A stretch of DNA of 64,000 bases from Bacteroidales bacterium. GTDB lineage: Bacteria; Bacteroidota; Bacteroidia; Bacteroidales; WCHB1-69. The stretch is taken from NCBI GenBank assembly GCA_017964255.1, contig JAGCSI010000034.1, positions 9,992-73,991 of the forward strand, written 5' to 3'. Below are positions 3-40,059 of this stretch, piece after piece (within the stretch, counting starts at the first letter, position 1; every line of letters begins with the position of its first letter). The position numbers and the translations under genes were made by a program. The notes under the pieces are model-generated. The model was not told the origin of the DNA. It saw only the letters and a list, made by a program, of their open reading frames with translations, and made no database searches.

Positions 3-749
3 GAATCTATCCAAATCTGTATACCATCAACAGTTCCTATTACCCTTGCCACGGCAACTCCATATCCTGCAAGTGGCTTGAACAAAACCCAACTGTTCTC
101 CAATGAAGGTATAACCCTTAAGGCGAGAGTTGGAAACTTTTCCCATTCTCAAGTGTCAAGTTTTGGTTTCCTTATTTCTGATAATCCGGATGATATTCAA
201 ACCTACAATAATGATTTTCGTTTGCCTGCAACATTTACTAATGTTAACGATACGCTATTTACCCATAAGATAGGTATGGAATACTGCAAAAAGACCTGGT
301 ATTACCGTCCTTATATGGTATTGACTGCATGTGATGGAGAAATCCTGTATGGAGAAATCGGCAGTGTGACGATGTGGGGACCGGAGGATTATAATCCGAC
401 AGCCACGCCGATTACTGTAACGGCAGGTCAAACGGTTAACTTGTCCTCCACGGCATACATCACCATAAGTTCGCTTGGTGGATGGAAGCCCATAGAATAC
501 TATCTGGATCCCAATGGTGAATATAGTGAATATGCAGATCAATTAGCTCATAATGGAGTAACATACGAAAACTGGTCCTATTATTGGAAAGCCAACGGCA
601 GCCAGATTTATTCCTCGCATACTTCGGGTAACACCACCCATAATCCCACTCAGACAACGGTGTATGATGCCTATTGTGTGTTTGAAATTAATGGATCGCA
701 TTGTATTGTGAATGGTAACCCGATTACTGTTACGGTAACTCAGCCGTAA
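3..749 (+). CDS. hypothetical protein, C-terminal part (frame open to window edge)
   Basis: Frame 3 has no stop from nt 3. The ORF track starts it at an internal TTG (78). No catalytic motif recognised; Thr/Asn/Tyr-rich, ends VTVTQP. A strong terminator hairpin follows. Confidence 0.55.
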   Translation, partial: ESIQICIPSTVPITLATATPYPASGLNKTQLFSNEGITLKARVGNFSHSQVSSFGFLISDNPDDIQTYNNDFRLPATFTNVNDTLFTHKIGMEYCKKTWYYRPYMVLTACDGEILYGEIGSVTMWGPEDYNPTATPITVTAGQTVNLSSTAYITISSLGGWKPIEYYLDPNGEYSEYADQLAHNGVTYENWSYYWKANGSQIYSSHTSGNTTHNPTQTTVYDAYCVFEINGSHCIVNGNPITVTVTQP

Positions 750-5754: not shown

Positions 5755-6828
5755 TCACGCTTCTTGTTTGCTGATGTTCAGCAACACACCGGTAGCGATG
5801 CCGGCAAAGAGTAGGGAGGCACCGCCACGACTGATGAAGGGCAGTGTCTGTCCGGTGGCGGGCAGGAGCCCGCAGTTGACACCAATGTGTACCAAGCCCT
5901 GACAACAGAACCAGAAACCTATACCTACCGCCAAGAGCATGCCGAAGGGTCCTTCGCTGCGCTTGGCGATTTTTATGGAGCGGATAAACAGCATCAGGTA
6001 GCAGGCCAGAATGATCAGGCTGGCGGTGATGCCCAATTCCTCCGTCACTGTGGTGAACACGTAGTCAGTGTCTTTTTCAGGCAGATTCTTGTTGATGACT
6101 CCCTGTCCAGGTCCTGCTGGCAGCAGTCCCGAACGGGCAATGGCAGCCTTCGACATAATCATTTGGTCGCCATAACCTTCGCTGTTGTCGTTGGTGATGT
6201 AATAGTGACAGCGGTGGCGGAAGGTGCTGGAACGTCCGGAGTTGGTTCCGAACAGGTAAATGGAGCCGAAGAAAACCGCCACAAAGCAGAAGAGCATAAG
6301 ATGCTTGATTCTGACATTGCCTAAAAACATAATGGCCAGGCTGGTGGCGAAAAAGATGATAGCGGTGGACATGTTGCTGAGAGCCATGCCACCGGTGAAC
6401 AGCAAGACGACAACAAATAGTCCTGACACGTCCTGTAAGGTCATTCTGGAATCATTGTTGATGCGGACGGCCAGGAATTTGGCGATGAAAAAAATGACCA
6501 GGAAACCGATGAAATAGAAAGTCTGGATTTCCATGGATCCGATTTGGATGCCTCGCCGTTCTTCATTACCGAACGCCAGGGTTGCCACCAGTAGAATGCC
6601 AGCTGCAAACAGGGAGAAGAGCGCCAGCCTCGACAATGCCTGGTAGTTGATTTTGTAGGCAACAAACATACCGACAAAGCATAGGGCGAGGTTGAACAAA
6701 TGGTGAATGAAGACAGAGGTCGATTTGGCAGAGCTTAACACTGCCAACACCGAAATCAAGGACAGGACAATGGTGATGATCAGGATGCCCCTGTCTCCTT
6801 TGAATTTGAATTTCTCCCTTAGATCCAT
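5755..6828 (-). CDS. ftsW: FtsW/RodA/SpoVE (SEDS) family cell-division protein
   Basis: 357-aa polytopic membrane protein. SEDS-like blocks KDTDYVFTTVTEELG and TGQTLPFISRGGAS; sits in the ftsW position of the dcw cluster. Confidence 0.8.
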   Translation of the reverse strand: MDLREKFKFKGDRGILIITIVLSLISVLAVLSSAKSTSVFIHHLFNLALCFVGMFVAYKINYQALSRLALFSLFAAGILLVATLAFGNEERRGIQIGSMEIQTFYFIGFLVIFFIAKFLAVRINNDSRMTLQDVSGLFVVVLLFTGGMALSNMSTAIIFFATSLAIMFLGNVRIKHLMLFCFVAVFFGSIYLFGTNSGRSSTFRHRCHYYITNDNSEGYGDQMIMSKAAIARSGLLPAGPGQGVINKNLPEKDTDYVFTTVTEELGITASLIILACYLMLFIRSIKIAKRSEGPFGMLLAVGIGFWFCCQGLVHIGVNCGLLPATGQTLPFISRGGASLLFAGIATGVLLNISKQEA

Positions 6829-6833
6829 TTATA

Positions 6834-6991
6834 GTCGTTTATTCGTTTATGCGTTAAGACGTTAAGACATGCACTTTGTGCATTCGTTAAGGCGTTAGGA
6901 CGTTAAGATATGTGTTACGTACATTCATCAAGGTAATTATCGTTTTAACGAGCGAACGAAGTGAGCGTCTCCACGCCTTCACGTTTCCACG
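6834..6991 (-). repeat. family-A composite intergenic element, copy 2
   Basis: cgttaagacg (6852-6861) pairs with cgttttaacg (6941-6950). Internal hairpin atgcac ttt gtgcat; octamer tail gtctccac gccttcac gtttccac. It fills the whole gap between the murD-remnant stop (6993) and the ftsW start (6828). Confidence 0.8.
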
Positions 6992-6992
6992 T

Positions 6993-7550
6993 TTATAACT
7001 GTGCTACCGCGTCTTTGAACTTGTCACCTCTTTCGCGGTAAGTGTGATACATGCCGAAACTGGTGGTTCCGGGAGCGAAAAGGATGGCGTCGCCGGCATC
7101 GGAAGCATAATAGGCGGTGCGAACAGCATCTTCCAGATTGTCACAAATATCCACCATTTTGTCCAAACCGGAAATGAAATCGTATACTTCTGTGTTGTAA
7201 ACATCTACCATGATGATATGTTTCACCTTTTCGTTGATAATGTCCACGAGACTGTCGCTGATATTCTCGCGTTTGTCAATGCTCATGATCCAAGTGGTAG
7301 GCTTGGTCATGCTTTCCAGGGCAAACCATACAGCGTTGGCGTTGGTGGAGCGTGAGTCGTTGATAAAATCTCTGCCTTCGATGGTCTTGACCAGCTCGAG
7401 GTTGTTGGCGCTGCCCTCGAAGTCGGACATGGATTCGTTCAAGCTTTCGTTACGTGCGTGGAGCAGTCTGCCCGCTACGGCAGCGGCCATGCTGCTGCGG
7501 TTGTCGGTGGTGGGGAATACGTTGTACCCAATGTTTTTGTTTGTTGCCAT
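6993..7550 (-). CDS. murD: MurD C-terminal-domain-only ORF (truncated UDP-N-acetylmuramoylalanine--D-glutamate ligase; likely gene remnant)
   Basis: 185 aa, versus roughly 440 aa for MurD (from memory). Only the C-terminal region is recognisable (DFINDSRSTNANAVWFALESM; LFAPGTTSFGMYHTYRERGDKFKDAV). The ATG lies 3 nt after the mraY stop, so there is no room for the N-terminal and P-loop domains. Confidence 0.6.
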   Translation of the reverse strand: MATNKNIGYNVFPTTDNRSSMAAAVAGRLLHARNESLNESMSDFEGSANNLELVKTIEGRDFINDSRSTNANAVWFALESMTKPTTWIMSIDKRENISDSLVDIINEKVKHIIMVDVYNTEVYDFISGLDKMVDICDNLEDAVRTAYYASDAGDAILFAPGTTSFGMYHTYRERGDKFKDAVAQL

Positions 7551-7553
7551 ATT

Positions 7554-8813
7554 TTATCTTACTTTTAATGTTACTACTGAAATTACTGCCAACAGGATGC
7601 CGATGATGATGAATCGCTGTACGATTTTGGTTTCATGCAGGCCCTTTTTCTGGTAATGGTGGTGAATGGGTGCCATCAGAAAGACGCGCTTGCCTTCACC
7701 ATATTTTTTCTTGGTATATTTGAAATAACTTGTCTGGATGATGACGGAAACTGATTCGATGAGATAGATGCCGCAAAGGACAGGAATCAGCAATTCTTTA
7801 CGGATGATGATGCACAAAACAGCGATGATGCCGCCTAGGGAAAGACTGCCAGTGTCGCCCATGAACACCTGGGCTGGGAAGCAGTTCCACCAGTAGAAGC
7901 CGAGACATGCCCCGAGCAAGGCGGCGATGAAGACTACCAACTCACCGATGTTGGGGATGTACATGATGTTCAGGTAGTCGGCGAAAATGCTGTTACCTGA
8001 CACATAGGCTAGTACGGCGATTCCTATGGAAATCACAGCTGCGGTGCCGATGGCCAGACCATCCAGTCCGTCGGTGAGGTTGGCCCCGTTAGATACCGCC
8101 GCTATGATGAAGATGATGACTAAAATGTAAACCAGTGAGGAAAGCAAGCCTGACTTGTCTCCCGTCCAGTTGGTGAGCCAGGCATAGTCGAATTCGTTGT
8201 TTTTCACAAAGGGAATGGTGGTCTTGGTGGAGTTGTGTTGGGCAGGAATTCTGCTGAAGACACTGGTAGTCTGGTTGGCCTCGCCAATGCTGACAACTTC
8301 TGTGGTTTCAACTTTCTTGCTTATAGTACTGTTTTTCTCTTTGATGATTACATCGGGATGAAAGCACATCACAATACCTACAATCAGGCCTAATACAATT
8401 TGTCCGATGAGTTTTTTCTTTCCGGAAAGGCCTTCTTTGTTTTTCTTGAAAACTTTGATATAATCATCGGCAAATCCTAGGCATCCTAACCATAAAGTAG
8501 TGAATATCATTAAGATAATGTAGATATTGTTCAGTTTGGTAACCAAAAGTACTGGTACGATAATGGAAGCGATGATGATAAGACCACCCATGGTAGGGGT
8601 GCCTTTTTTCTGGAGCTGTCCTTCCAGACCAAGGTCGCGGACAGTTTCTCCAATTTGAGCCTTTTGCAGTTTCTTGATGACACTTCTTCCAATTATGAGC
8701 GAGATGAAAAGTGAAAGCACGATGGCTGCTGCTGCTCTGAAAGAAATGTATTGGAACATTCCCGCGCCAGGGAAGTTGTATTGGTGTAACCAGTCGAAAA
8801 GGTAGTACAGCAT
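7554..8813 (-). CDS. mraY: phospho-N-acetylmuramoyl-pentapeptide transferase
   Basis: 419 aa. Motifs [21 protein letters not shown] and APIHHHY; multi-pass membrane protein in dcw order. Confidence 0.95.
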
Positions 8814-8832: not shown

Positions 8833-10308
8833 TTAGAGATTAAAGTTTGCTTTTATTTCTTCGGTGTCATCAAAGTGATGTTTCACGTGGTTGATTTCCT
8901 GATAGTTCTCGTGGCCTTTACCGGCAACCAGCAGCACATCCTTGCCTTGCATCAGCATGCAGGCGGTCTTGATGGCCTCGTGGCGGTTCTCGATGACCAG
9001 CACCTTGCGTTTTTGGTCGGCGCCCACTCCTTGAAGCATGTCGTTGAGGATGTCCTCGGGTTTCTCGGTACGGGGATTGTCGGAGGTCAGGATGACCTTG
9101 TCGCTGTATTCGCAGGCGATGGCGGCCATCTCTGGGCGTTTCAGCTTGTCGCGGTCACCACCGCATCCTACCACGGTGATGATGTTCACGCTGTGCTGCG
9201 TGATGTCGGTGATGGTGGAGAGCACGTTCTTCAGTGCGTCGGGGGTATGGGCGTAATCAACAATGGCAGAACCTCCTTCAGTATTGCGGATCAGCTGGAA
9301 ACGGCCGGCAGCGCTACCCAAGCCACTCATTTGCTGTAATACCTCGGCGGAATCCATACCCAGCAGGATGGCGGCACCGTAAATGGCCAGCAGGTTGTAG
9401 GCATTGAAGCGGCCACATAATTTGAAATACACTTCCTGTCCATTGATGGTCATCTGCAGACCAGTGAAGTCATTGTCCAAAATAACTCCTTTGAAATCAG
9501 CAGTTTTCAGCAAACTGTAAGTCTTGACTTTGGCCCTGCTGTTTTGTGTCATCACCAGGCCGTTCTTGTCATCAATGTTGGTCAGAGCGAAAGCGTTTTC
9601 AGGCAGTTCGTCGAAGAATTTCTTCTTGGCTTTGATGTATTCGGCAAAGGTTTTATGATAGTCCAAATGGTCGTGGGTAATGTTGCTGAAAATGCCTCCG
9701 GCGAAATGTAATCCCGCGATGCGGTGCTGGCAGATGGCGTGTGAGCTGACTTCCATGAAGCAGTACTGGCAGCCAGCTTCCACCATGCGGTGAAGCAGTT
9801 CGTTCAGCACGATGGCGTCGGGGGTGGTGTGTGTAGTGGGGATGACTTCGTTTACAATGCGGTTTTCAATGGTGGAAAGCAGTCCGGTGGGGTAACCCAT
9901 GCTGTTGAACAAGCGGTACAGCAGGGTGACGGTAGTGGTTTTGCCATTGGTGCCGGTGATGCCCACCAAATGCAGTTTCTGGCTGGGGAAATCATAAAAA
10001 GCACTGGCCAACAATCCAAGGGCGATGTCACTGTTAGGCACCTTGATGAAGGTGACATCCTGAGGTAGAGACGTTTCCTGAAACGTCTCTGCAGGAATCT
10101 CTTCGCAAACAATCATTCTGCCGCCCTGTTCAATGACTTTGCCGATGAAACTGTGGCCATCCACATGGGTGCCACGCTGGGCGACAAACAAGGTGTTAGC
10201 ATCGTTTGCTTTGCGCGAGTCAAAGGTGATGTTCTCCACCTGACGCTCGGCAGATCCTATGAGTTCATATTTTCCAATGTGTTGCAATAAAAAAGATAAG
10301 GTTTTCAT
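8833..10308 (-). CDS. murE: UDP-N-acetylmuramoyl-L-alanyl-D-glutamate--2,6-diaminopimelate ligase
   Basis: 491 aa. P-loop GITGTNGKTTT and a DNPR motif (TSDNPRTEKPEDI) typical of DAP-adding MurE. Confidence 0.95.
   Translation of the reverse strand: MKTLSFLLQHIGKYELIGSAERQVENITFDSRKANDANTLFVAQRGTHVDGHSFIGKVIEQGGRMIVCEEIPAETFQETSLPQDVTFIKVPNSDIALGLLASAFYDFPSQKLHLVGITGTNGKTTTVTLLYRLFNSMGYPTGLLSTIENRIVNEVIPTTHTTPDAIVLNELLHRMVEAGCQYCFMEVSSHAICQHRIAGLHFAGGIFSNITHDHLDYHKTFAEYIKAKKKFFDELPENAFALTNIDDKNGLVMTQNSRAKVKTYSLLKTADFKGVILDNDFTGLQMTINGQEVYFKLCGRFNAYNLLAIYGAAILLGMDSAEVLQQMSGLGSAAGRFQLIRNTEGGSAIVDYAHTPDALKNVLSTITDITQHSVNIITVVGCGGDRDKLKRPEMAAIACEYSDKVILTSDNPRTEKPEDILNDMLQGVGADQKRKVLVIENRHEAIKTACMLMQGKDVLLVAGKGHENYQEINHVKHHFDDTEEIKANFNL
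10065..10092. repeat. 28-bp palindrome family B, copy inside murE coding sequence
   Basis: gtagagacgtttcctgaaacgtctctgc differs from the intergenic consensus at 2 positions. It is translated in-frame as AETFQETSL in the MurE N-terminal domain. Confidence 0.85.
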
Positions 10309-10326: not shown

Positions 10327-12582
10327 TTATTCCAGATAAAGTGTTACAGTGTTGGTGGCCGTGTTCAAATCCTGACGGTGTACCACGCCATAGCCTTTTA
10401 TTTTCACTTGATAGCCGGCGCGTGTCAGTTCGCTGACAGCATCAGCCGCAATCATATCTGTCACATCAGGCATCTTGTCGCCGTTTTTGAAACGAGGTTT
10501 TTTCAGCATCACGGAGTAGTCTTCGCGCAAGCCGGAGGTGACGTAGGGCACCGGCAGTTGACTGTCAGGATAAGCGATGCCCAGTTGTTTCATGAGGAAC
10601 TTGTATTGTTCAGTGTTGACCACGTAGGTTCTGGGTGTTTTGGTGTTTTGATTATGATTGACAGTTTGCAATGCGCCATAGCCATTGTTGCCGGTGTTCA
10701 TAATATTTCTGGCAATACGAGCGAAGACATCTACAGCAATGGAACTTTTTTTGGACACATTGTACATGAAAACCAGACAGGTGTATTTTGGGGTGTCGGC
10801 GGGGAAATATCCGCAAAAAGAAACGCTGTTCTTGCTGTAGTTGTATGCTTTGAGTTCCTCGTCCCAGATGTCACGGGTACCGGTTTTACCAGCAAAAGTT
10901 ATTATTGTGTCTCGGTAAGGGCGGGCAGTGCCATGTTCGCCGTAGACCACTGCTTTCAGGTAGCTTTTTGCCTTGGCAATAGTTTGTGGACTGCATATTT
11001 TCTCGTTGAGGACTTCTGCTTGGAAGGTTTCTAGGGGTTCAGTCTCGTGAGCTTTGGTGATGTATTTGACGAAGAGTGGTGCAAGCATTTTGCCGTTGTT
11101 GGCGATGGCATTGTAATACACCAAAGTCTGGATGGGGGTCATGGTGAATCCAGCCCCATAGCAGGTGTTGTAATAGGTATGAAAATCTTTGGCATTACGC
11201 TTGAGATTGGGAGCCTGAATCTTACCTAATTGTGTGGAGAAAGAGGTGGTGATGTATAGTTGGTCGATTTTTTTCAAGTAATTTTTATAGTTATTATCGC
11301 CGAAGGCATCAAAGATCATGGAAGCAATACCGACATTGGAGGAACGCTGGATAATTTCACTGGGATAAGCGTAAATATTTTTGTGGTTATTGTCGTCATA
11401 GGAACTTTTGTCATATTTGTGGTACACGTATGTCCTGCTATTGTCTTTGTTTGTTCTTTTGAAATCATGACACAAAATGTGATAGGCCTTGTTATCATCA
11501 CCATGTCTCTGTTCCAGGTAGGCGAGGGCAGAGGCAATCTTGAAAGTGGAACCTGGCTCCACCATCTTGTGCAGCACGTATTCATCGCTTTCAGTATAGT
11601 CACTTCCGTCACGGTTGGCCCGGCGCAGGTTGCAAATGGCTTTGATTTCTCCGGTCTCGGTTTCCATCACCACTGCGCAACCCCATTCTGCATTTTGTTC
11701 TATTAGTTTGGCTTTTAATTCATTGTGGACGATATTCTGAATTTCCAGATTCAAGGTGGTATGGATATCGTAACCGTCAACAGGCTCCACATATTCATTC
11801 AGGGGAAGACGGGCTTTGTTGACATACAGATATTTGCGGGAGCCTTCAATGCCGGCAAGCTGTTCGTTGAAGTAGTACTCCATGCCATACTGGCGGTCGC
11901 CGATGTTCAGGCCTAAAGTTCGTTTGGCAAGGTCTCCATAGGGGTTGATGCGCACGGTATGGTAGGTGTAGTTGACACAGCGTTTGCAGGGTTTCTCGGA
12001 GAACATGGGCAGATGATTGATAAAAGCAGTGTCCTCGGAGGTGACCCATCGCTGCTCATTGCTTTCGTTAGACTGTAGGATGAGCGCATTGCTTTGCTCT
12101 ATCAAGGCACGGGTGAATTTTTTACGATAGTATTGCAGGTCGTTTTTGGGGAATTTGTCTTTGAAATGATTATAGAATTCCGCACTCAGTGTCTCAACCA
12201 ATTTGTTCAGCTTGGCGGCGGAATGAACATATATGGTGTCTTTGGAGCCGAAAATACGGCCATCCAGCGTGAGGTCGAAAACGGTGACATTGCTGACCAG
12301 CACGTGATTCTGATCGTCATAGATCTCTCCTCTGACAGGGCGCACGTTGTTGGCTATCACATAGCAGTCGCAGGTCGAGTCCTGGGCGAGGGGGTTCTGC
12401 TTCCAGTCTTCCTGGGTTTTGTCGAGGCATTTGGAGGAGGTGCCACTATAAAGTGAGCGTTGGAAAATGACAAGATACAGGATTTTGCCGAAACAGCAAA
12501 CACCCAGCAACAACACCAGAAACAGGATGACTCCCATTCTCGTGTTGAAACGTTTGTTTCCCATGTTTTCGTTATTCTGCAT
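10327..12582 (-). CDS. ftsI: penicillin-binding protein (FtsI-type class B transpeptidase)
   Basis: 751 aa with an N-terminal membrane anchor. Transpeptidase motifs STFK (EPGSTFK), SSN (RSSNVG) and KTG (AGKTGT). Confidence 0.9.
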   Translation of the reverse strand: MQNNENMGNKRFNTRMGVILFLVLLLGVCCFGKILYLVIFQRSLYSGTSSKCLDKTQEDWKQNPLAQDSTCDCYVIANNVRPVRGEIYDDQNHVLVSNVTVFDLTLDGRIFGSKDTIYVHSAAKLNKLVETLSAEFYNHFKDKFPKNDLQYYRKKFTRALIEQSNALILQSNESNEQRWVTSEDTAFINHLPMFSEKPCKRCVNYTYHTVRINPYGDLAKRTLGLNIGDRQYGMEYYFNEQLAGIEGSRKYLYVNKARLPLNEYVEPVDGYDIHTTLNLEIQNIVHNELKAKLIEQNAEWGCAVVMETETGEIKAICNLRRANRDGSDYTESDEYVLHKMVEPGSTFKIASALAYLEQRHGDDNKAYHILCHDFKRTNKDNSRTYVYHKYDKSSYDDNNHKNIYAYPSEIIQRSSNVGIASMIFDAFGDNNYKNYLKKIDQLYITTSFSTQLGKIQAPNLKRNAKDFHTYYNTCYGAGFTMTPIQTLVYYNAIANNGKMLAPLFVKYITKAHETEPLETFQAEVLNEKICSPQTIAKAKSYLKAVVYGEHGTARPYRDTIITFAGKTGTRDIWDEELKAYNYSKNSVSFCGYFPADTPKYTCLVFMYNVSKKSSIAVDVFARIARNIMNTGNNGYGALQTVNHNQNTKTPRTYVVNTEQYKFLMKQLGIAYPDSQLPVPYVTSGLREDYSVMLKKPRFKNGDKMPDVTDMIAADAVSELTRAGYQVKIKGYGVVHRQDLNTATNTVTLYLE

Positions 12583-12943
12583 CTTCTTTCGGAGTTTGTA
12601 CTATGATTTTATATATTCGCTTGTCATTTTTCTCGAAACCTCTGTTGTTCAGCATCTGTTTCAGCTCCTGGTTTTGATCATACAGGATGTACTGGTTGTT
12701 GTGTTTCAGTGCGCTGATAGTCTGCTTGTATTCAGTTTCCAACTGTTTGATTTTTTGTCTTTTGGTATCCATGTTGTGTTCGTTCAGCACAATCAGAATC
12801 ATCAGCAGGAAAACGTAGGTGATGTAAGGATACCAGCGGACGGTTTCCGGAGCAAACAGGAAGTCGCCGGAAATCAGTTGTTTCCAGAAGCTGTCGCCCT
12901 TGGTTTTGGGCTCTTTGGGTTCCTGTTTGCTGGTGGTTATCAT
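12572..12943 (-). CDS. ftsL: FtsL-like cell-division protein
   Basis: 123 aa from the ATG at 12943. One TM segment (WYPYITYVFLLMILIVL) followed by a coiled-coil-like region. The 204-aa ORF-track version would overlap rsmH by 238 nt. Confidence 0.6.
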   Translation of the reverse strand: MITTSKQEPKEPKTKGDSFWKQLISGDFLFAPETVRWYPYITYVFLLMILIVLNEHNMDTKRQKIKQLETEYKQTISALKHNNQYILYDQNQELKQMLNNRGFEKNDKRIYKIIVQTPKEDAE

Positions 12944-12948
12944 GTTTG

Positions 12949-13848
12949 TTATTTTTTTTCTGCGACTCTTAATTTTGCGCTTCTGGCACGGGGGTTGACG
13001 GCTATTTCGTCCTCGTCGGGGATTACGGCCTTCCGGGTAATCAGGGTGAACGGGGTCATCAGGTTGCCGAAAAAGTCTTTGTCGGCTTCGCCTTCGAATT
13101 TTCCCGATCGCATGAAGTTCTTCACCAGTCGGTCTTCCAGCGAATGGTAGGCGATGACCACCAGCCGGCCTCCCGGTTTCAGGCATTCCACCGTTTGGCT
13201 TAAGAATTCTTTCAGCACAGCCATCTCGTCATTCACCTCTATTCTGATGGCTTGGAAAAGCTGCGATAGCACTTTGTTTTCCTTGCCTTTTGGGAGCATT
13301 GGTGTTACTGCGGCGACCAGCTGGGCAGTGGTGGCGATTTCGGCTTTCTCGCGCTCGCTCACAATCTGGCGCGCCAACTGTTTGCCGTTGGGCAGTTCGC
13401 CGTAGGTGTAGAACATGGCAGCCAAACGTTCTGGGGCATAGCCGTTGATAATCTCGCGGGCGGAAACCTCTTTCTGCTGGTTCATGCGCATGTCCAAAGC
13501 ACCGTCAAAGCGGTGCGAAAATCCCCGTTCCGCTGTGTCGAACTGGTAGGACGACACCCCGAGGTCGGCCAAAATGCCGTCGGCGGGACAACATTTATAA
13601 TATTGGGCGAATTTTTTCAGATGGCGAAAATTGCTTGGAACAAATTGGAAGCGTTCGTCATCTATAATATTATGTTGTGCGTCAGGGTCTTGGTCGAAGG
13701 CCAGCAAATGTCCGGCAGGATTCAGGCTTTCCAAAATTTTCCGGGAATGCCCGCCACCGCCGAAGGTGACATCGATATAGGAGCCGGAGGGATTGGTGAC
13801 CAGTTGCTGTATGGATTCCTCAAGGAGGACCGGGTTATGGTATGTCAT
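12949..13848 (-). CDS. rsmH: 16S rRNA (cytosine1402-N4)-methyltransferase
   Basis: Starts MTYHNPVLL (typical RsmH N-terminus) with a SAM-binding loop DVTFGGGGHS. The upstream alternative start at 13884 would overlap mraZ by 50 nt. Confidence 0.9.
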   Translation of the reverse strand: MTYHNPVLLEESIQQLVTNPSGSYIDVTFGGGGHSRKILESLNPAGHLLAFDQDPDAQHNIIDDERFQFVPSNFRHLKKFAQYYKCCPADGILADLGVSSYQFDTAERGFSHRFDGALDMRMNQQKEVSAREIINGYAPERLAAMFYTYGELPNGKQLARQIVSEREKAEIATTAQLVAAVTPMLPKGKENKVLSQLFQAIRIEVNDEMAVLKEFLSQTVECLKPGGRLVVIAYHSLEDRLVKNFMRSGKFEGEADKDFFGNLMTPFTLITRKAVIPDEDEIAVNPRARSAKLRVAEKK

Positions 13849-14323
13849 TGCCTTCCTCCTTTCGCGCAGTATTAAATTGGCCAAGGTGAATGGCCTCGTT
13901 CAACTTGTTCAATTCTTCTGGGGTCATGTCGAACTCTTTGTGGTATGCCTCACTGTCCCAAACGTCAATTTTGCCGTCGTCTAAAATCATTACTACCTCA
14001 CGATCAATATTATAGTATTCCATGAAGAATTTTGGAATGACAAGGCGGCTTTGTGAGTCACATTCCACAAGGGTATTGCGCGTAAGAAATGCGTTGCGGT
14101 ATTTCTTGATTGCTATGATGTTTCTATCCAAAGAATTAAGGAAATCCATCTGTTTCTCGTAGGCCTTCATGGTCCATAAGGTCACATGATTGCCGAAACC
14201 AGGGGTAGCCATAAAACAACTGCGGTCATCTTCGTCCAATGACTTCAAGAGCATGGTGGGCAATTTCACACGCCCATGCTTCTCGATGGCAGCTTCATAA
14301 TAACCTTGATTGAATTTTGGCAT
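13835..14323 (-). CDS. mraZ: division/cell wall cluster transcriptional regulator MraZ
   Basis: 162 aa. Two MraZ/AbrB-like half-domains (GRVKLP..., SRLVIPKFF); first gene of the dcw cluster. Confidence 0.85.
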   Translation of the reverse strand: MPKFNQGYYEAAIEKHGRVKLPTMLLKSLDEDDRSCFMATPGFGNHVTLWTMKAYEKQMDFLNSLDRNIIAIKKYRNAFLTRNTLVECDSQSRLVIPKFFMEYYNIDREVVMILDDGKIDVWDSEAYHKEFDMTPEELNKLNEAIHLGQFNTARKEEGNDIP

Positions 14324-14346
14324 TTTTTTCTTTGGTTTTATCGTGG

Positions 14347-14354
14347 CAAAGATA
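14347..14354 (-). promoter_or_regulatory. Bacteroidota -7 box (TAtcTTTG on minus strand) for mraZ
   Basis: caaagata lies 24 nt upstream of the mraZ ATG (14323). Confidence 0.55.
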
Positions 14355-14857
14355 TATCTTTTTTCAATACTTTTTCCACAATTTTTCCTTTTTAGTCAAA
14401 AAAAGATAATATTGTAATGTAAATATCTGAAAATCAGTGTGGAAAAAAATGGTAATTTTTTCGAATTTAAAGGATTAATAAGCTAAAATATTGATTTTTC
14501 AGTAGATAAAGTTATATAATTTAATAAATCATAACTTTTTAAAAATCAATACTATATAAGAAATAAATGGAGGTCTTTCCAAAATTTTCCACAATAGATT
14601 GTTGATTTTCGGAGAAATCTGGAAAAAAATGGAAACTTTTGGAGCGGGAAGGAAAGTTATCAACAAAAAAACGACCCGAAGGTCGTTATGCTTTCCACAG
14701 GGGAATGTTGATTAATTAACAAATTGGTTAATTAGCAAATAAGCAAATGATTTTAATGTGCTAATGTGCAAATTGATGATTACGATTTGCTCGAATGAGG
14801 CTCGAAAACGGCCTCAAAGAGGTCGAATCTTAGTAACCCCGCACGTAAGTGTGGGGT

Positions 14858-15187
14858 CTAGAACATCACAATCTTCAGGTACTCCACCAGCACTGCGGCG
14901 AGGACCGCTCCGATGGCGACAGTGAGCAGGTCACGTTTGCGCCACGACATGATGAGCGCTACCACCGTGGCGACAACACCCGAGGTGAGACTTTTGGTAG
15001 AATATATGACATCGGGGAAGGTCATGGCAGCCAGTACGCAGAAGGGGATGTAGAACATGAAATCCTTGAACCAGCGGTTTTCTAATTTGCGGTGGAACAC
15101 AGCCATGGGCGTCACCCTGATGAAATAGGTGGTGAGGGCCATGACAGCCAACATGATGCCTGCGGTGGAGAAAGTGAATTGGCTCAT
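14858..15187 (-). CDS. azlD: AzlD-family branched-chain amino acid transport protein
   Basis: 109-aa hydrophobic protein. It overlaps the AzlC stop by 4 nt, the classic azlCD pairing. Confidence 0.8.
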   Translation of the reverse strand: MSQFTFSTAGIMLAVMALTTYFIRVTPMAVFHRKLENRWFKDFMFYIPFCVLAAMTFPDVIYSTKSLTSGVVATVVALIMSWRKRDLLTVAIGAVLAAVLVEYLKIVMF

Positions 15188-16116
15188 CGTGCCACCTCCT
15201 TTCTCTCTGCCTCATCGGCAACCTCGTCGGTTTTGAAGAAAGTGGCGCAGAGGGAAGCTGCTCCAATAGCGGAGATAATCAGCGACCAGCCACCACCGTT
15301 CTGTGAAATCTGGTTGATGCCAGGCACATATTTGAACATGCACGACAGTGCCGAGGCAATCAGTATAGAGTAGAATATCTTCTTGTTGGTTTTGGAGGGC
15401 GGCACAATGATGGCGATGAACATGCAGTACAAGGCAATGCCCATGCAGGCCTGTACCATGGCGGGCATCAGCTCGGCGGCAAAGGCACCCAGCACCGTGC
15501 CCAGCGTCCAGCCGACAATTGGGCATGTCATCAGGCCGGTAAAGAAACGGAAGCTGACATCCTCTTTCTCCATGGCTGCCAGCGCGAAAATCTCGTCCGT
15601 CACGCCGAATGCCATGATACAGCGTTTGTAGGTCGGCATTTTTGGGTCTATCTTTTGCGTCAGCGAGAGGCTCATCAGGAAGTAGCGGATGTTCACCACC
15701 AGGGTGGTCATGGCCAGTTCGATGGCAGGAGCGCCACCGGCAATCATGCGGATGCCGGCAAACTGACCGGCAGAAGCCAGGTTGGTGAGCGAGATGAAGA
15801 CCGCTACCCAGGGGTCGAAGCCCATCTGCACGGCCACCAAACCGAAAGTGAACGACACGGGTACATAGCCCAAGCCGATGGATTTGCCCAACGACAAGCC
15901 CCGCATATAGTCGTTTTTCGGTTGGTCCTTACGGGATCTGCGTCTCAGGACCTTGATCAGGAGGGGGAGACGGCGCACAATCAAGAGGTCATTGACCTGC
16001 TCGCGCAAACGCCGGTTGAACTTGTCGCGCCTCCATTTCATGGCGCGCAAGGTGGCTTTTCGGCGCGAACCGCGTCGGCTGCTTACACTCTTGATTTTTT
16101 TATTTTCTTTTACCAC
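15184..16116 (-). CDS. azlC: AzlC-family branched-chain amino acid permease component (start uncertain)
   Basis: The polytopic core starts near MRGLSLGKSIGLGYVPVSF. The longest ORF uses a GTG at 16116 and adds about 70 Arg/Lys-rich residues. In-frame ATGs at residues 26 and 71 are alternative starts. Confidence 0.75.
   Translation of the reverse strand: MVKENKKIKSVSSRRGSRRKATLRAMKWRRDKFNRRLREQVNDLLIVRRLPLLIKVLRRRSRKDQPKNDYMRGLSLGKSIGLGYVPVSFTFGLVAVQMGFDPWVAVFISLTNLASAGQFAGIRMIAGGAPAIELAMTTLVVNIRYFLMSLSLTQKIDPKMPTYKRCIMAFGVTDEIFALAAMEKEDVSFRFFTGLMTCPIVGWTLGTVLGAFAAELMPAMVQACMGIALYCMFIAIIVPPSKTNKKIFYSILIASALSCMFKYVPGINQISQNGGGWSLIISAIGAASLCATFFKTDEVADEAERKEVAR

Positions 16117-39986: not shown

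Positions 39987-40059
<73 letters not shown>

Follow-up and report, generated by a model that had tools for sequence, protein, structure and literature searches.

The gene examined here lies at 6993..7550 on the minus strand of a 64-kb window (the whole stretch of 64,000 nucleotides that was analyzed, from contig JAGCSI010000034.1 of a Bacteroidales bacterium), between mraY and ftsW in a cluster of genes for division and the cell wall (dcw). It encodes a stand-alone protein of 185 amino acids (aa) related to the C-terminal domain (CTD) of the D-glutamate ligase MurD; we refer to the gene as the CTD gene and to the protein and its orthologues as family 1. The dcw cluster is among the most conserved gene arrays in bacteria, and MurD is treated as a universal, essential and single-copy enzyme of three domains and as an antibiotic target. 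In this case, a free and catalytically degenerate MurD C-domain is encoded by a gene that is itself under selection, and such genes are common in the dcw clusters of Bacteroidota, either beside murD or in its place.

The MurD C-domain gene in its cell-division cluster

The CTD gene is one open reading frame (ORF) that starts with an ATG 3 nt past the mraY stop codon, leaving no space for 260 codons in between. The murD model TIGR01087 matched residues 16-183 of the protein at model positions 273-440 of 441 (E 7.8e-35), with a score of 120.8 bits that is below the family cut-off of 211.95. Pfam recognized Mur_ligase_C alone, below its threshold, and MurD chains in the PDB matched from about residue 284 through the C-terminus. 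Homology thus covers approximately MurD residues 256-437, which comprise the last helices of the central domain, the hinge, and domain 3. The earlier note on this DNA, made from the sequence alone, had described an ORF aligning only to the C-terminal third of MurD, starting 3 nt from the mraY stop and physically missing the UDP-binding and ATP-binding domains, and all of this agreed with the profile match, the PDB alignment and the ORF coordinates. Its reading of an intact frame with altered conserved positions also held, as the protein has INDSRSTN where MurD has NDSKATN, and WIMSIDKRE in place of the GGxDKG block. The three-domain architecture of MurD (~440 aa) is not present, and the central-domain region with the P-loop (GxxGKT/S) and residues K115, E157, H183, and K198 is absent from the ORF. 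The CTD protein alone cannot be a ligase.

A structural model of the CTD protein was built with AlphaFold2 on 27 family members. Residues 1-18 were variable and disordered, residues 19-44 formed a low-confidence helix that stems from the final part of the central domain of MurD, and residues 50-185 formed a confident α/β domain with the MurD domain-3 fold and a predicted local distance difference test score mostly above 90. When the model was compared to the PDB, all of its first 33 matches were MurD (probability 1.00), with a root-mean-square deviation of 2.5-3.6 Å over ~145 columns for most and 7-8 Å for three. Relative to MurD (TIGR01087; Escherichia coli, PDB 1uag-4uag; Thermotoga maritima, 4buc), the window protein has the same fold, occupies the same place after mraY and before ftsW, and keeps D317, Y/F422, R425, G426, and F429, but is without the UDP-binding domain, the ATPase domain, and the P-loop, and has N268, N271, R302, K319, G344-G345, K348, and D417 replaced. 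The plant MurE-like protein PAP11 (PDB 8qma_O and 8r6s_Q) was also among the fold matches, weakly, with a TM-score of 0.42. PAP11, which we take to be a non-ligase structural subunit of the plastid RNA polymerase, differs in being eukaryotic, in keeping the multi-domain Mur-ligase architecture, and in having no genomic tie to cell-wall genes. Another reduced-domain member of the Mur-ligase family is MurT, a subunit of lipid II isoglutaminyl synthase that acts in a complex, and its NCBIfam model (NF052464) was among the matches of the window MurE. MurT is catalytic and has retained the central ATPase domain, whereas the window protein has kept domain 3 only.

All genes of the cluster are on the minus strand and in the order mraZ, rsmH, ftsL, ftsI, murE, mraY, CTD gene, and ftsW, after which the cluster ends. 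The first gene, mraZ (13835..14323), encodes 162 aa and is followed by rsmH (12949..13848, 299 aa) and an ftsL-like gene (12572..12943, 123 aa, FtsL_2), both as called on identical contigs, the latter converted from L001 4608-4979. The ftsI-type gene (10327..12582) encodes a class B penicillin-binding protein of 751 aa in which the STFK, SSN, and KTGT motifs are present. MurE (8833..10308, 491 aa) has its P-loop and DNPR motif and scored 603 bits against a family cut-off of 373, and MraY (7554..8813, 419 aa) scored 324 bits against 192. FtsW (5755..6828, 357 aa), encoded by the last gene, scored 195 bits, which is below the 337.5 cut-off of the ftsW model. Since the motifs and scores of MurE, MraY, and FtsI are normal, these proteins look functional and peptidoglycan synthesis appears intact, and on this sequence evidence UDP-MurNAc-L-Ala-D-Glu must presumably be made, with MurD activity encoded somewhere. 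Past ftsW there is an opposite-strand DUF5362 gene, followed by genes for a phosphoglucomutase and an ADP-forming acyl-CoA synthetase. The genes murG, murC, ftsQ, ftsA, and ftsZ are absent from the window and, in related GTDB loci of sufficient length, from the 10 kb downstream. In the window and in the other Bacteroidota clusters called, murE is directly followed by mraY, and murF is outside the dcw cluster.

The spacer of 164 nt between the CTD gene and ftsW (6829..6992) contains repeats. These are 8-nt-periodic units of the forms CGTTxAxx and CGTxxCCA, of CGTTTATT, CGTTAAGA, and CGTCTCCA types, together with imperfect inverted repeats. Regulation or protein binding is a possible role of this array.

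Conservation and loss of ligase residues in family 1

An identical CTD protein was present on 13 contigs, and in four of these, each from a separate ENA or Logan sample, the neighbors are also the same. A scan of GTDB, with one genome per species, gave 37 loci of this short type (L008-L043 and L080), assigned to Bacteroidales, Lentimicrobiaceae, and "Bacteroidetes" metagenome-assembled genomes (MAGs) that originate from yak, sheep, goat, buffalo, reindeer, horse, termite, human (Hadza), and sediment. The CTD protein of one of these, MAG RGIG9334 from yak abomasum (L008), is 98% identical to that of the window, and this MAG presumably represents the same species. In 36 of the 37 loci, the ORF is 184-187 aa long and is preceded within a few codons by a stop codon, and the remaining one is clipped by a contig end. 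Orthologue identity to the window protein ranges from 98% down to 40% with length unchanged, and in the family alignment 27 columns are invariant and a further 21 nearly so. The ratio of nonsynonymous to synonymous substitution rates (dN/dS, Nei-Gojobori), a measure that the earlier note had proposed, was 0.025, 0.118, and 0.128 against L008, L010, and L011, respectively. These values are like those of the neighboring essential genes in the same genomes, which were 0.055-0.069 for mraY, 0.041-0.051 for murE, and 0.062-0.094 for ftsI. The CTD gene is therefore real and under purifying selection.

The argument on relatives is based on the GTDB loci and on an unfiltered HMMER search with the family profile. 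Three protein-database homologue searches gave no match longer than ~1.8 times the query, so that their lengths are biased to query-sized proteins, and the 185-186 aa found for all 120 protein-database matches is no evidence against longer relatives.

Two explanations that would deprive the gene of a function bear on these results. Many short MurD-like database "proteins" are contig-end or frameshift fragments, and an assembly or gene-calling artefact could in the same way conceal the N-terminal two-thirds of a murD gene. The gene is, however, identical on 13 contigs with the mraY stop 3 nt upstream, which excludes the mis-assembly considered in the earlier note; it also occurs in 36 MAGs from different studies, and there is no room for the missing codons ahead of its ATG. 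We give an artefact practically no credence. A pseudogene piece left by a 5′ deletion of murD and open by chance is hardly more credible. The presence of the C-terminal third alone and the changes at several conserved positions are what such decay might produce, but the frame is intact, the length is constant in 36 species to 40% identity, and the dN/dS of 0.025-0.13, the invariant columns, and the confident domain model all argue against it. Furthermore, the spread of identity from 40 to 98% rules out recent horizontal copies of one sequence. Of the two alternatives that had been proposed for the short gene, a decaying remnant is thus refuted by its constant length, dN/dS, and 27 invariant columns, while a role other than the original one is supported by CTD paralogues that coexist with full-length murD, as described below. 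The short form itself was seen correctly, but it is not specific to this genome, as the gene belongs to a widespread family and the whole cluster is remodelled.

The order rsmH-ftsI-murE-mraY-CTD gene was found in all 37 related loci, and mraY is upstream of the CTD gene in every one that reaches far enough. The mraY stop is 1-6 nt ahead of the CTD gene ATG in the subclade of the window and ~60-250 nt ahead in other subclades, where distances are from the ends of mraY hits. In one subclade (L024-L043 and L080; 40 nt before the start), the spacers contain AAACC or TAAACC-like repeats right before the ATG. The gene after the CTD gene is mostly ftsW; L014 and L015 have none on the downstream side, and in L022 it is displaced. 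Because ftsW is absent or displaced in some loci and mraY is always upstream, mraY is the constant neighbor. In L022, a termite-gut Lentimicrobiaceae MAG, a restriction-modification module is inserted between the CTD gene and ftsW (10664-15832), consisting of a fusion between a C5 methylase and an Eco57I-type methylase, an unknown protein of 394 aa, and RmuC.

In order to describe the residue changes, the 37 family 1 members were compared with 21 full-length Bacteroidota MurD proteins and E. coli MurD; MurD numbering in the literature equals translation numbering minus 1. The ligase positions discussed here are 100% conserved in the 21 full-length proteins, apart from H267, which is found in 20 of 21. 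In family 1, H267 and N268 are replaced or gapped, with E, D, Q, or H at N268, and N271 is kept in 54%. R302 is K in 89% and otherwise N, as in the window protein, or H. K319 is R, the G344-G345 pair is N or S followed by I or M, K348 is variable (P, L, V, or R), and D417 is G. T321 is kept in 84% and S415 in 51%. Retained positions are D317, which is invariant, Y422 (97%), R425, G426, and F429, and among the Mur-ligase invariants N268, N271, R302, and D317, only the last is invariant in family 1. Most ligase residues in the retained segment have therefore been lost. N268 and N271 are presumably ATP contacts in MurD, and from the crystallography and mutagenesis literature we take T321, K348, S415, and F422 to be D-Glu contacts. 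The hinge residue R302 acts as a "handle," linking the C-domain via ADP to the central domain, and domain 3 of MurD binds the incoming amino acid (PMC4816537).

Family 1 has also acquired near-invariant residues of its own, which in E. coli translation numbering are L282, R286, D296-F297-E298, K308, V372-Y373, Y400, G413, R424, and Q436-L437. The N-terminal helix contains an invariant Arg (R33) and a near-invariant L29. Conserved residues cluster in loops of the former active-site face, namely the DS loop, the LF(S/A)PG loop, and TYRERG. Because the conserved residues concentrate in these loops, the former active-site face is probably still a working surface, with another partner or ligand.

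Other free MurD C-domain genes in Bacteroidota

The unfiltered HMMER search and a word-indexed search also returned many MurD-C-only proteins of 181-183 aa, here called family 2. Their genes are directly after mraY in otherwise complete dcw clusters in L089, L091, and L095. In a widespread Bacteroidales MAG lineage (P0305, 65 contigs; L097 10554-13072, also L098-L100), ftsW is followed directly by murC, murG is absent, and murD is CTD-only. In a neighbor-joining tree, family 1 formed its own clade on a long stem, whereas family 2 was polyphyletic, with several members nested among the C-domains of full-length MurD, which indicates that CTD-only genes arose more than once. Residues were counted in the 33 family 2 members on contigs of ~8 kb or longer. 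H301 and G344-G345 were each present in 33/33, R302 in 32/33, and S415 in 29/33; T321 (18/33), K348 (16/33), N268 (15/33), and N271 (10/33) were kept less often. In 90% of the 21 full-length Bacteroidota MurD proteins, there is an internal Met just before GxHN (the column of E. coli L256), at the point where the ORFs of family 2 start. Full-length murD genes could conceivably contain an internal start.

A further set of free domains was evident next to complete murD genes. A metagenome scan yielded 71 loci with full-length murD and a downstream ftsW, and in 37 of these ftsW followed murD directly. In 16 of the 71, a second, CTD-only ORF that is a clear paralogue of the MurD CTD (here called T) was located between murD and ftsW. 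Over all loci, 20 T ORFs of 153-191 aa were extracted (for example, L150 8148-8696, L163 3845-4393, L148 1099-1668, L109 8895-9359, and L158 10563-11075), and these, which are old tandem paralogues, are 28-51% identical to the MurD C-domain of their own locus. They start -1 to 87 nt after murD, or 170 nt in the doubtful L131, with frequent replacement of R302 by N, Q, S, or H and frequent loss of K348.

In 17 further loci of the 71, the gap between murD and ftsW was 370-670 nt and contained an ORF that is 146-176 aa long, or 123 aa in L162, and carries the motif RPHGKLWGMDVFSW...SFPFPVxW or, in a longer form, RPHGKLWGMDVFSW..NP...SFPFPVxW...LLFT. Examples of these ORFs, called G, are L070 10549-11019, L074 and L084 10509-10988, L178 10559-11032, and those of L127, L161, and L168. 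This form (~155 aa) was also found in three GTDB loci (Fluviicola and Crocinitomicaceae) and on many freshwater contigs. No Pfam model matched the G ORFs above its cut-off, but in a profile-profile comparison (hhalign) with family 1 they aligned over 137 columns with a probability of 88.6% (E 2.6e-6), which identifies them as remote homologues. T and G genes had dN/dS values of 0.035-0.16. As these genes are under selection next to a complete and presumably catalytic murD, the free domain has its own function and must do something that MurD does not.

T and G proteins resemble the window protein in their small size (146-191 aa), domain, Arg-bearing N-terminal helix, slot upstream of ftsW, degeneration, and selection. 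They differ in that T and G genes coexist with complete murD, whereas the window gene has no murD at its locus and belongs to a separate clade. We propose a family defined by a length of 146-191 aa, a hinge helix plus domain 3, a position before ftsW and after murD or mraY, degeneration, and selection, and the window ORF has each of these properties. All CTD-only proteins keep 25-45 residues of the central domain, including the conserved Arg.

Family 1 and the tandem paralogues are 29-41% identical. The 17-residue leader, the helix, and the length of family 1 resemble those of the T proteins of L150 and L163, while hidden Markov model (HMM) scores placed family 1 slightly nearer to full-length C-domains than to T paralogues. 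Family 1 and the tandem paralogues may be orthologous; the HMM slightly favored full-length C-domains, and the neighbor-joining tree was uninformative at that depth. The gene may have originated by in situ 5′ truncation of murD, or by loss or relocation of murD from a pair of murD and a CTD gene; both are possible. The description of the gene as a reduced murD was thus right in its homology, but the gene may instead have survived from such a pair after murD left.

No Pfam or NCBIfam model exists for free MurD CTD proteins, and in source annotations they are called "hypothetical," "cyanophycin synthetase" (PGAP), or "MurD" (JGI). Full-text literature searches gave no description of truncated, split, or stand-alone MurD C-domains. 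The domain as such is known, but descriptions seem to be lacking for its occurrence as a conserved free-standing gene of the dcw cluster and for its taking the place of murD in whole clades. As a consequence, annotation and pathway-completeness calls may misjudge the completeness of peptidoglycan synthesis in Bacteroidales of the rumen, horse, and termite gut.

Search for MurD and candidate roles of the free domain

The N-terminal halves of the 21 Bacteroidota MurD proteins were searched by tblastn in six frames against the window and 39 short-type loci (the 37 GTDB loci plus L001 and L005, with 10 kb on either side), and only MurE was found. Likewise, Pfam recognized no Mur-ligase central domain in the 26 window ORFs except that of MurE, and both results bear out the earlier note's observation that the sole P-loop of this kind in the window is in MurE. 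The 92-kb contig was read for 3 kb (L001) and ~9 kb beyond the window ends, and no mur gene was present in these parts. A gene for the N-terminal half was not found near any of the 37 + 6 loci. A central-domain profile gave only matches of 245 aa or less in the protein database, and a partner of ~270 aa is beyond the reach of such a search. When contigs with N-half matches were compared to those with CTD genes, there was no match. Several candidates were rejected. The short N-half-like proteins inspected are contig-end or frameshift fragments of ordinary murD. The full-length MurD closest to the family 1 profile (P0131) is not a relocated paralogue, as it sits in a normal dcw cluster, and the 67-aa ORF located after mraY and before the CTD gene of L095 does not represent a remnant of the MurD N-terminus.

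Because murF is already outside the cluster, the simplest expectation is that full-length murD has been relocated elsewhere in the genome, and we regard this as probable. For one genome the searches covered ~90 kb, and for each relative they covered 20 kb. A different expectation is that the clade of uncultured gut and anaerobic Bacteroidales, together with the other lineages in which murD is replaced, has no canonical MurD. D-Glu would then be added in another way, for example by another Mur ligase for which the free domain serves in trans as an exchangeable module that binds and presents the substrate, or preformed or scavenged peptide would be ligated, and nothing derived from MurD would be left apart from the CTD gene. 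Such a route is suggested by the absence of the N-terminal and central domains from everything searched, by the polyphyly of family 2, which suggests that several gut and anaerobic lineages of Bacteroidota can do without the N-terminal and central part, and by correlated remodelling, with murG gone in L097, murG, murC, and ftsQAZ gone here, and FtsW and FtsI fast-evolving. Against it are the small share of each genome searched and the position of murF, which makes relocation of a mur gene ordinary. In addition, K348, the GG loop, and part of T321 have been lost, which argues against the CTD presenting D-Glu. We consider this improbable, but if true, it would be the first exception known among wall-building bacteria to the universal MurC-D-E-F ligase series and a much more important finding.

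Another explanation is that MurD is split and the CTD protein supplies the C-terminal half of a D-glutamate ligase in two pieces, docking in trans, by its retained domain-2 helix and hinge, on an N-terminal and central half encoded elsewhere. MurD activity is needed, given intact MurE, MraY, and FtsI, and yet full-length murD was not seen in the loci searched. The central-domain residues with the conserved Arg that are kept in all CTD-only proteins would fit such docking, as would the family 2 members in otherwise complete clusters, which keep the hinge (H301 and R302), G344-G345, and S415. On the other hand, family 1 has lost N268 and N271 (ATP), the hinge R302, K348 (D-Glu), and the GG loop, and in many lineages degenerate CTD genes adjoin a complete murD, so that complementation is not needed there. 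Furthermore, no gene for the other half was found near the loci, and N-half-like proteins were fragments. A split ligase is unlikely, if a little less so than the absence of canonical MurD.

We lean towards a third possibility, an adaptor or regulatory role of the CTD protein in machinery centered on MraY and FtsW. The protein is a free homologue of MurD domain 3, with the last helix of domain 2, and would no longer take part in D-glutamate ligation. It would have been kept as a non-catalytic accessory of the lipid II and divisome machinery, either as an adaptor of the pseudoenzyme type or as a ligand binder, and would act probably via the former substrate-binding face, where the family-specific invariants, with D65/S66, P160/G161, and T170-G175, are located. 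Full-length catalytic murD, along with murG, murC, and ftsQAZ, would have left the cluster and is presumed to be elsewhere in the genome. The partner would be MraY, FtsW, or a Mur ligase.

This role is suggested because the gene is tightly linked to mraY and occupies the slot before ftsW, because natural MurD-FtsW fusions exist, and because FtsW and FtsI have diverged together. That Mur ligases contact MraY, FtsW, and the divisome in structural or regulatory ways beyond catalysis is a long-suspected idea. A domain that is kept once the enzyme part is gone is an obvious candidate for the interface, and it offers a testable handle on these contacts. Divergence of FtsI and FtsW was determined from tblastn bit scores against a Prolixibacteraceae reference at equal MraY and MurE divergence (compare L044-L087). 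FtsI scored 164-233 bits in short-type lineages relative to 306-490 bits in lineages with full-length murD, and FtsW scored 71-100 bits relative to 115-250, roughly half. Natural fusions of MurD to FtsW have been found in Proteobacteria and Actinobacteria (PMC10214165). They place the MurD C-domain physically beside FtsW, which is compatible with contact between the C-domain and the divisome glycosyltransferase. These fusions differ from the window gene in that they contain full-length catalytic MurD rather than a free domain and occur in other phyla.

Several observations weigh against an adaptor role. The retained central-domain helix with R33 and L29, D317, and the loops of the active-site face fit docking in trans on a Mur-ligase central domain equally well. 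Family 2 is less degenerate at H301, R302, and G344-G345, and some of its members, such as P0294 in L095, keep every catalytic residue of domain 3. Neither full-length murD nor its N-terminal and central part was found in the 64-kb window, in the parts of the contig that were read, or within 10 kb of the loci of 37 species, and none of the 115 full-length murD loci fetched was outside the mraY...ftsW context. A variant in which the free domain senses a ligand, such as a UDP-MurNAc-peptide or an amino acid, is equally compatible with the data.

Two further features lie away from the dcw cluster. The window starts in or beside the gene for a giant surface protein (>3,100 aa) with MBG_2 repeats (window 78-749 and upstream, L001 16802-20558). 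A single tRNA gene is located at 39987-40059 on the minus strand and is the only Rfam match in the window.

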